IMG/VR virus record: IMGVR_UViG_2585427748_000004
Origin: a virus
Taxonomy: Duplodnaviria > Heunggongvirae > Uroviricota > Caudoviricetes
Length of the DNA: 6,942 nucleotides
Direction: 5' to 3' (one strand)
Shown: positions 3,084 through 3,302 of the stretch, one piece after another
How the letters are laid out: every line of letters begins with the position of its first letter
Position numbering within the stretch: the stretch's first letter is position 1
The notes under the pieces: generated by a model
Told to the model about the DNA's origin: nothing
What the model saw: only the letters and a program-made list of their open reading frames with translations
Databases searched by the model: none
Translations under genes and position numbers: made by a program

Positions 3084-3126
3084 CTGCTTAGAAGGCAATT
3101 GCTCTGTCCGGCTGAGCTAACAACGC
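3084..3126 (-). pseudogene. tRNA-Arg(UCU)-like 5' fragment: acceptor strand, D-arm and anticodon arm present, no T-arm or 3' acceptor strand
   Basis: Minus strand reads GCGTTGT-TA-GCTC-AGCCGGACA-GAGC-A-ATTGC-CTTCTAA-GCAGC, with anticodon TCT. The downstream sequence has no TTCGA/TTCAA-type T-loop and no ACAACGC to pair with the acceptor strand. Confidence 0.5.
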
Positions 3127-3140
3127 AGAATACCGATAAA

Positions 3141-3217
3141 TGGACCGCCATCGAGAACTCGAACCCCGCGCAACCAGCTTCGAAGGCTGGCGCTCTATCC
3201 CGATGAGCTAATGGTGG
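3141..3217 (-). tRNA. tRNA-Arg, anticodon UCG (77 nt including CCA)
   Basis: Manual fold: acceptor CCACCAT/ATGGCGG (one A-C mismatch), D-stem GCTC/GAGC, anticodon stem CCAGC/GCTGG with loop CTTCGAA, T-stem CGGGG/TCTCG (two G-U pairs), T-loop TTCGAGT, discriminator T, CCA. Lies 9 nt downstream of the Ile tRNA. Confidence 0.7.
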
Positions 3218-3226
3218 TATGTGATA

Positions 3227-3302
3227 TGGTGGCCCTTGCTGGATTTGAACCAGCGACCTGGCGATTATGAGTCGCTCGCTCTCACCACTGAGCTAAAGGG
3301 CC
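3227..3302 (-). tRNA. ileZ: tRNA-Ile2 (anticodon CAU, AUA-decoding type), 76 nt
   Basis: Minus strand reads GGCCCTTTAGCTCAGTGGTGAGAGCGAGCGACTCATAATCGCCAGGTCGCTGGTTCAAATCCAGCAAGGGCCACCA. Perfect acceptor stem, anticodon loop CTCATAA, and close match to E. coli ileX as I recall it. Confidence 0.85.

Follow-up and report, generated by a model that had tools for sequence, protein, structure and literature searches.

This locus raises the question of what became of the third gene of a phage tRNA cluster, and of whether the half gene left behind still matters. The window, by which we mean the whole 6,942-nt stretch of DNA that was analysed, contains exactly two complete tRNA genes, both on the minus strand, as called by ARAGORN and by Rfam RF00005 (gathering score 29 bits). 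In 3084-3302, the interval to which the original prediction had assigned an Ile, an Arg and a truncated Arg gene, ARAGORN called two tRNAs, with anticodon UCG in the middle gene, and no complete third. No third tRNA was called in the window by either ARAGORN or Rfam at its gathering score. We place a probability of roughly 90% on the reading that this is an ileZ-argN-argO cluster with a deletion scar in argO, that its tRNAs supplement those of the host, that the scar is neutral, and that the deletion arose once and then spread. The features of the cluster and its upstream side are as follows.

4976-5797, minus strand: Q antiterminator, 273 aa (Pfam Antiterm, E = 5.8e-50)
3352-4401: DNA methyltransferase
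3312-3340, minus strand: counterpart of the 933W putative tRNA promoter pT, aligning to pT at 933W (L001) 2727-2755
3227-3302, minus strand: ileZ, anticodon CAU, 3' CCA encoded (ARAGORN; Rfam 72.5 bits)
3141-3217, minus strand: argN, tRNA-Arg with anticodon UCG, CCA end encoded (ARAGORN; Rfam 44.9 bits)
3085-3126, minus strand: argO remnant, the first 42 nt of tRNA-Arg(UCU) (alignment to 933W and FDAARGOS_1281)

Comparison with phage records by megablast revealed that window positions 3085-3340 match dozens of Stx2 phages at 94-96% identity. The 933W record (GenBank AF125520) annotates the region as ileZ (AUA), argN ('CGH; CGG?') and argO ('AGA; AGG?'), and ARAGORN assigned the anticodons CAT, TCG and TCT to the 933W cluster. 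Alignment established the kinship with the Stx-phage ileZ-argN-argO cluster, to which the original prediction had suggested a comparison: the window genes run CAU, Arg(UCG), Arg(UCU), in the same orientation as the 933W genes and homologous to them. In the RefSeq and Pfam annotation the neighbourhood reads RusA, Q antiterminator, a small ORF, an N6/N4 DNA methyltransferase and the tRNAs, followed by an esterase, a holin and a lysozyme. The cluster lies between the Q antiterminator and the lysis genes on the same strand, where such a cluster is expected, and its position downstream of Q and the methyltransferase and upstream of a nanS-p-type esterase and the lysis genes is the usual one.

The likeness to 933W extends to gene order and orientation downstream of Q, to an identical ileZ sequence and to an alignable pT region; the two argN genes share the UCG anticodon, with differences at 4 of their 77 positions. 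In contrast to 933W, the window carries a DNA methyltransferase gene between Q and the tRNAs and no stx genes after them, and the last 35 nt of argO are gone together with the terminator-like hairpin that follows. With argO reduced to 42 of its 77 nt, the three genes are not all complete, and the locus derives by deletion from the lambdoid/Stx-phage ileZ-argN-argO cluster and is not a full member of it. Transcription of ileZ and argN would occur by read-through from pR', perhaps also from the putative pT. The pT counterpart was not flagged by a simple sigma-70 consensus scan; its alignment to the annotated 933W element suggests that it may have promoter activity. Residues 171-217 of the Q antiterminator also matched the DnaJ CXXCXGXG zinc finger, though below threshold (27.1 bits against a cut-off of 32.7).

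The CAU gene is labelled Met(CAT) by ARAGORN, tRNA-Ile by RefSeq and ileZ, reading AUA, in the 933W record, and the last two labels agree with the intact Ile(CAU) gene of the original prediction. The gene carries C4-G69 and C5-G68, which we take to be TilS determinants, and lysidine modification of C34 by the host TilS would allow it to read AUA. In E. coli K-12 the chromosomal tRNA-Ile2 genes ileX and ileY decode AUA, and argU encodes tRNA-Arg(UCU), which decodes AGA. The ileZ and argO genes of the cluster would share the decoding roles (AUA, AGA) of ileX/ileY and argU, and are phage-borne paralogues of them.

The anticodon of the middle gene had been offered as a fold-based reading in need of a check. 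ARAGORN gave UCG for both the window gene and 933W argN, with TCG placed at position 35 of the window gene and an anticodon loop of CUUCGAA. Phage tRNAs of the argN type are often described as AGA/AGG decoders; argN is a CGN-family (UCG) tRNA, and AGA/AGG reading in this cluster belongs to argO alone. To our knowledge, the Arg anticodons of E. coli K-12 are ACG, CCG, UCU and CCU, with UCG absent. K-12 reads CGU, CGC and CGA with an inosine-modified ACG tRNA. Through U34 wobble, argN would read CGA and CGG.

Codon usage was compared in the record of strain JKHS016, whose genome is 99.94% identical to the window over bases 1-6687. The prophage that holds the window there (L007 21749-49901, beside an ompW fragment and the trp operon) is Rac-like (racR, ydaT, dicB, hokD) and defective, without most head and tail genes. 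Most of its late genes, for which the codon comparison had been suggested, are gone, and the remaining CDSs were counted: 37 prophage CDSs (6671 codons) were set against 21 neighbouring chromosomal CDSs (6184 codons) by Fisher tests, with these results per 1000 codons.

AUA: prophage 12.0, host neighbours 2.6 (p = 2e-10)
AGA: prophage 7.0, host neighbours 1.9 (p = 2e-5)
AGG: prophage 5.5, host neighbours 0.8 (p = 1e-6)
CGG: prophage 8.5, host neighbours 3.4 (p = 2e-4)
CGA: prophage 4.6, host neighbours 2.7 (p = 0.08)

AUA, AGA, AGG and CGG were enriched in the prophage (p below 0.001 for each). The excess was weak for CGA, which of these codons is the most specific to an anticodon UCG. By supplementing scarce host tRNAs, ileZ and argN would serve prophage genes that are rich in their codons. 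The prophage retains the codon bias that a complete cluster would serve and is rich in AGA and AGG although argO has been lost; its codon use has thus ceased to match its tRNA set.

The argO remnant, which has no RefSeq annotation, reads GCGTTGT TA GCTC AGCCGGACA GAGC A ATTGC CTTCTAA GCA on the minus strand. It keeps the 5' strand of the acceptor stem, the D arm, the 5' strand of the anticodon stem, the loop CUUCUAA and 3 nt of the 3' strand of that stem; the 35 nt that were lost comprise the rest of the anticodon stem, the variable loop, the T arm, the 3' strand of the acceptor stem and CCA. A permissive Rfam scan of 2960-3142 gave a sub-threshold partial tRNA match at 3083-3117 (14.2 bits, E = 2) that spans the D and anticodon arms (model positions 10-42). 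The third gene had been described as truncated at its 3' end and lacking a T-arm, and the alignments support this, with a breakpoint at 3085, one base from the 3084 first given. The accompanying statement that the cluster 'has lost or is losing' its AGA decoder was right about the loss; 'losing' is too weak, because argO is already dead, a 5' fragment unable to form a tRNA.

The remnant differs from the first 42 nt of 933W argO at a single position, with A in place of G at position 37. This A (window 3088) is also found in the intact argO genes of L005 (E. coli FDAARGOS_1281) and L006, giving the loop CUUCUAA, and 933W has G37 (CUUCUGA). A37 in E. coli Arg(UCU) tRNA is presumably a t6A site, which would make the 933W allele the unusual one. 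A candidate residual T arm, in which MAFFT paired TGGTT...TCC with the T arm of argO, was rejected as a coincidence, the segment being native DUF3927 sequence in the undeleted relative.

That relative is FDAARGOS_1281, in which the layout runs methyltransferase, ileZ, argN, intact argO, terminator-like hairpin, TerB-family gene and DUF3927. Its TerB-family CDS encodes 143 aa (Pfam TerB, E = 2.9e-16), and the 54-aa DUF3927 CDS overlaps the stop of the TerB-family gene by 4 nt. The features at and around the break are as follows.

L005 3046-3638, minus strand: TerB-family and DUF3927 gene pair, absent from the window
3084/3085: deletion junction (BLAST: 3085 corresponds to L005 3844 and 3084 to L005 3189)
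2965-3081, minus strand: DUF3927 remnant, the GT-rich tract (RefSeq 38-aa protein; Pfam PF13064, E = 5.8e-11)

BLAST homology to every intact cluster ended exactly at window base 3085, and the window corresponds to the FDAARGOS_1281 layout minus L005 3190-3843 (654 bp). The missing DNA takes in the last 35 nt of argO, the terminator-like hairpin, the TerB-family gene in full and DUF3927 codons 1 to 7, and the junction joins argO position 42 to DUF3927 codon 8. Alignment with FDAARGOS_1281 revealed no microhomology or repeats at the two ends, which points to an illegitimate deletion without microhomology. A single event of this kind, 654 bp long, would have fused argO position 42 with codon 8 of the downstream DUF3927 gene and left both fragments as inert scars. 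The reverse direction, an insertion, was rejected as implausible, as it must rebuild a perfect tRNA 3' half and the start of an ORF. An assembly artefact was excluded by the presence of the junction in hundreds of independent complete genomes. In the undeleted non-Stx relatives the TerB-family/DUF3927 pair stands directly after the tRNA cluster, where Stx phages have stxAB; it looks like a two-gene accessory cassette, a putative one, that has been lost from the window.

A junction of this sort could also be a mosaic boundary, produced by homologous recombination of two phage modules sharing tRNA sequence and not by deletion. Lambdoid phages are mosaic, identity to FDAARGOS_1281 is 96% on the tRNA side and drops to 82% overall on the other, and the occurrence of four argN alleles among junction-bearing copies shows that recombination does occur just upstream. 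We nevertheless regard a mosaic boundary as highly unlikely: both flanks are contiguous in one relative, FDAARGOS_1281, exactly 654 bp apart, the breakpoint falls inside two genes that share no sequence there, and homologous exchange would be expected to give an intact tRNA gene.

Half a tRNA in a prophage can also call to mind an attachment-site scar, the partial duplicate left by site-specific integration into a tRNA gene. Partial tRNA copies are common at prophage ends. DLP12 at argU is one example (PMC6379469). The fragment in the window is, in contrast, internal to the prophage, between Q and the methylase on one side and the lysis genes on the other, and it is a 5' part, where att duplicates are normally 3' parts. 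The undeleted relative has a whole gene in this position, and the 654 bp after it are ordinary phage sequence containing neither an integrase nor an att structure; an attachment-site origin is scarcely credible.

The deletion reading also accounts for the GT-rich tract. The original prediction took this tract to be the former 3' region of the third tRNA; that identification failed, and the tract is an unrelated Val/Leu-rich remnant of DUF3927, as indicated by PF13064 and by the undeleted relative. It adjoins the tRNA half because the 654-bp deletion brought the two together. The remnant scored 42.6 bits against PF13064 (cut-off 25), covering only profile positions 11-39 of 53, compared with 71.7 bits over positions 4-50 for the intact 54-aa protein of FDAARGOS_1281. 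No NCBIfam hit was obtained for the remnant protein. In addition to the first 7 codons it has lost 1 nt near its 3' end, which alters the C terminus; this 1-nt deletion is present in 30 of the 34 non-redundant junction-bearing sequences that made up our comparison set. RefSeq places the start differently between genomes, giving 38 aa or 28 aa, a conflict that fits a pseudogene fragment without a start codon or a translational coupling partner. The 38- or 28-aa 'DUF3927 family protein' calls at this locus are probably pseudogene fragments.

We then considered transcription through the scar. The next strong terminator-like hairpin on the strand closes an STnc100 copy, at 2711-2692. Since the hairpin after argO has been deleted, transcripts probably continue through the remnant toward the 2711-2692 terminator. 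After the deletion, 3' maturation of argN would have to proceed without RNase P cleavage at argO. Two tandem small-RNA copies lie on this side of the cluster.

2683-2876, minus strand: STnc100 sRNA, first copy (Rfam RF02076, 138 bits)
2219-2407, minus strand: STnc100 sRNA, second copy (Rfam RF02076, 132.5 bits)

Each copy ends with a GC-rich terminator hairpin. In 933W and FDAARGOS_1281, STnc100 stands beside an AsxR/AgvB-type sRNA; in the window, no AsxR match was found at the Rfam gathering score. A 111-aa ORF on the plus strand (1858-2193), flanked by the STnc100 copies on one side and the esterase gene on the other, is annotated by RefSeq as the anti-adapter protein IraM; it gave no Pfam hit at E <= 0.1.

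The entry of transcripts into the remnant bears on a further reading, in which the tRNA half is functional, as a processing signal, a small-ORF leader or a tRNA-derived small RNA, and is under selection. With the argO hairpin gone, transcripts from the tRNA promoter should run into the remnant, and 32 of 34 copies have the same remnant and junction although they differ in argN. In contrast, the fold of the remnant region was no better than that of shuffled sequence (z = +1.41; 187 of 200 shuffles were at least as stable), and an RNase P substrate would need a 3' acceptor strand, which the remnant lacks. The downstream ORF has neither a start codon nor a coupling partner, is frameshifted in 30 of 34 copies and has an annotated start that varies between genomes, and the identity of the copies is explained by a single origin and recent spread. 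A function for the half gene is very improbable in our judgement, and the scar would be neutral.

Analysis of 5426 complete E. coli genomes revealed full coverage of an 81-mer spanning the junction in 325 (~6%), and at least 80% coverage of an intact 933W argO query in about 2270. A larger count for the junction, 1268 genomes with at least 80% of a 461-nt query, was discarded, as these were mostly two-piece matches representing intact argO plus the insert. The junction 28-mer was matched exactly, too, by the type strain of E. albertii and by 30 IMG/VR contigs. This common possession of the junction by E. coli genomes, E. albertii and IMG/VR contigs argues for a single origin followed by spread, and the simplest history would be that the 654-bp deletion happened once and then spread by recombination among prophages. 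Among the 34 copies, ileZ was the same sequence in every one, and the junction with its downstream remnant was identical in 32, behind four argN alleles. That copies of the remnant are nearly identical could be due to recent spread or to selection, and the data fit both equally.

The argN alleles differ in the integrity of their stems. Compared with the FDAARGOS_1281 allele, the window gene carries two substitutions in the alignments, each of which weakens a stem. In the acceptor stem, A replaces G3 and is mismatched with C70 (A3.C70); in the T stem, U replaces C61, leaving G53.U61 where the pair G53-C61 is near-universal. The Rfam score is 44.9 bits for the window gene versus 56.1 for FDAARGOS_1281 and 54.8 for 933W; the window allele is still above the gathering score and called by ARAGORN. 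This exact allele was present in 32 of the 5426 complete E. coli genomes. The 34 junction-bearing copies comprised 16 with intact stems, 4 with G3/U61, 10 with A3/U61 (the window allele) and 4 with a scrambled middle, and in these last 4 no tool called a tRNA. The series suggests that argN is a gene with continuing decay in the window's lineage, the direction of change being judged from sequence alone. The element in JKHS016 is a defective prophage, in which continuing decay is expected. The four G3/U61 copies do not have the 1-nt deletion in DUF3927. In the simplest history, the deletion would have come first and the DUF3927 frameshift after it, with the argN alleles shuffled by recombination just upstream.

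We also weighed the possibility that the deletion was not neutral, having fused transcription of the tRNA operon to the STnc100 region with the tRNA half as a processing or stability element, or, in a milder version, that hosts keep ileZ selectively while the Arg genes decay. We consider this a long shot. If it were true, a processing or stability role would explain the spread of the junction to ~6% of complete E. coli genomes and to E. albertii, and the milder version would mean that hosts have domesticated a phage AUA decoder, ileZ being invariant in 34 of 34 copies. The locus shows unequal retention within a phage tRNA cluster, with ileZ invariant and the Arg genes eroding.

The ileZ-argN-argO cluster has long been known, and Stx phages have been described that differ in the tRNAs they carry at this locus (PMC7366253). 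In some Stx phages the stx region has fewer tRNAs, with 'Met' plus Arg only in Stx2e and two Arg in Stx2b (PMC7366253). Like these reduced sets, the cluster in the window is a two-gene derivative of the locus that lies between q and the lysis genes. Unlike them, it keeps a recognisable 42-nt stump, the event can be retraced to the single base, and the element is not an Stx phage. We found no description of this particular 42-nt argO stump in the literature. The loss of argO is ordinary pseudogenisation, in sequence already annotated in hundreds of RefSeq genomes, and the locus matters little beyond annotation; it does offer a tidy, datable marker of prophage recombination, in which a deletion was followed by a frameshift and by stepwise damage to argN.

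Other features were observed in the elements compared. In the JKHS016 prophage, a tail-fibre assembly gene lies immediately beside a CDS for a 1002-aa 'terminase gpA', and the interval from the terminase to the lysis genes encodes a 'beta family protein' and an 'sce7726 family protein'. An altered argN slot, in which the acceptor-stem ends of argN flank a middle of unrelated sequence, occurs in phage vB_EcoS-640R1 and in many E. coli prophages, as at the following positions.

L002, about 4240-4340, minus strand: argN slot with replaced middle
L006, 3754-3853, minus strand: argN slot with replaced middle

No tRNA was called in this slot by ARAGORN, by RefSeq or by Rfam at E <= 1. The slot accompanies an intact argO in L006 and a truncated argO in L002.
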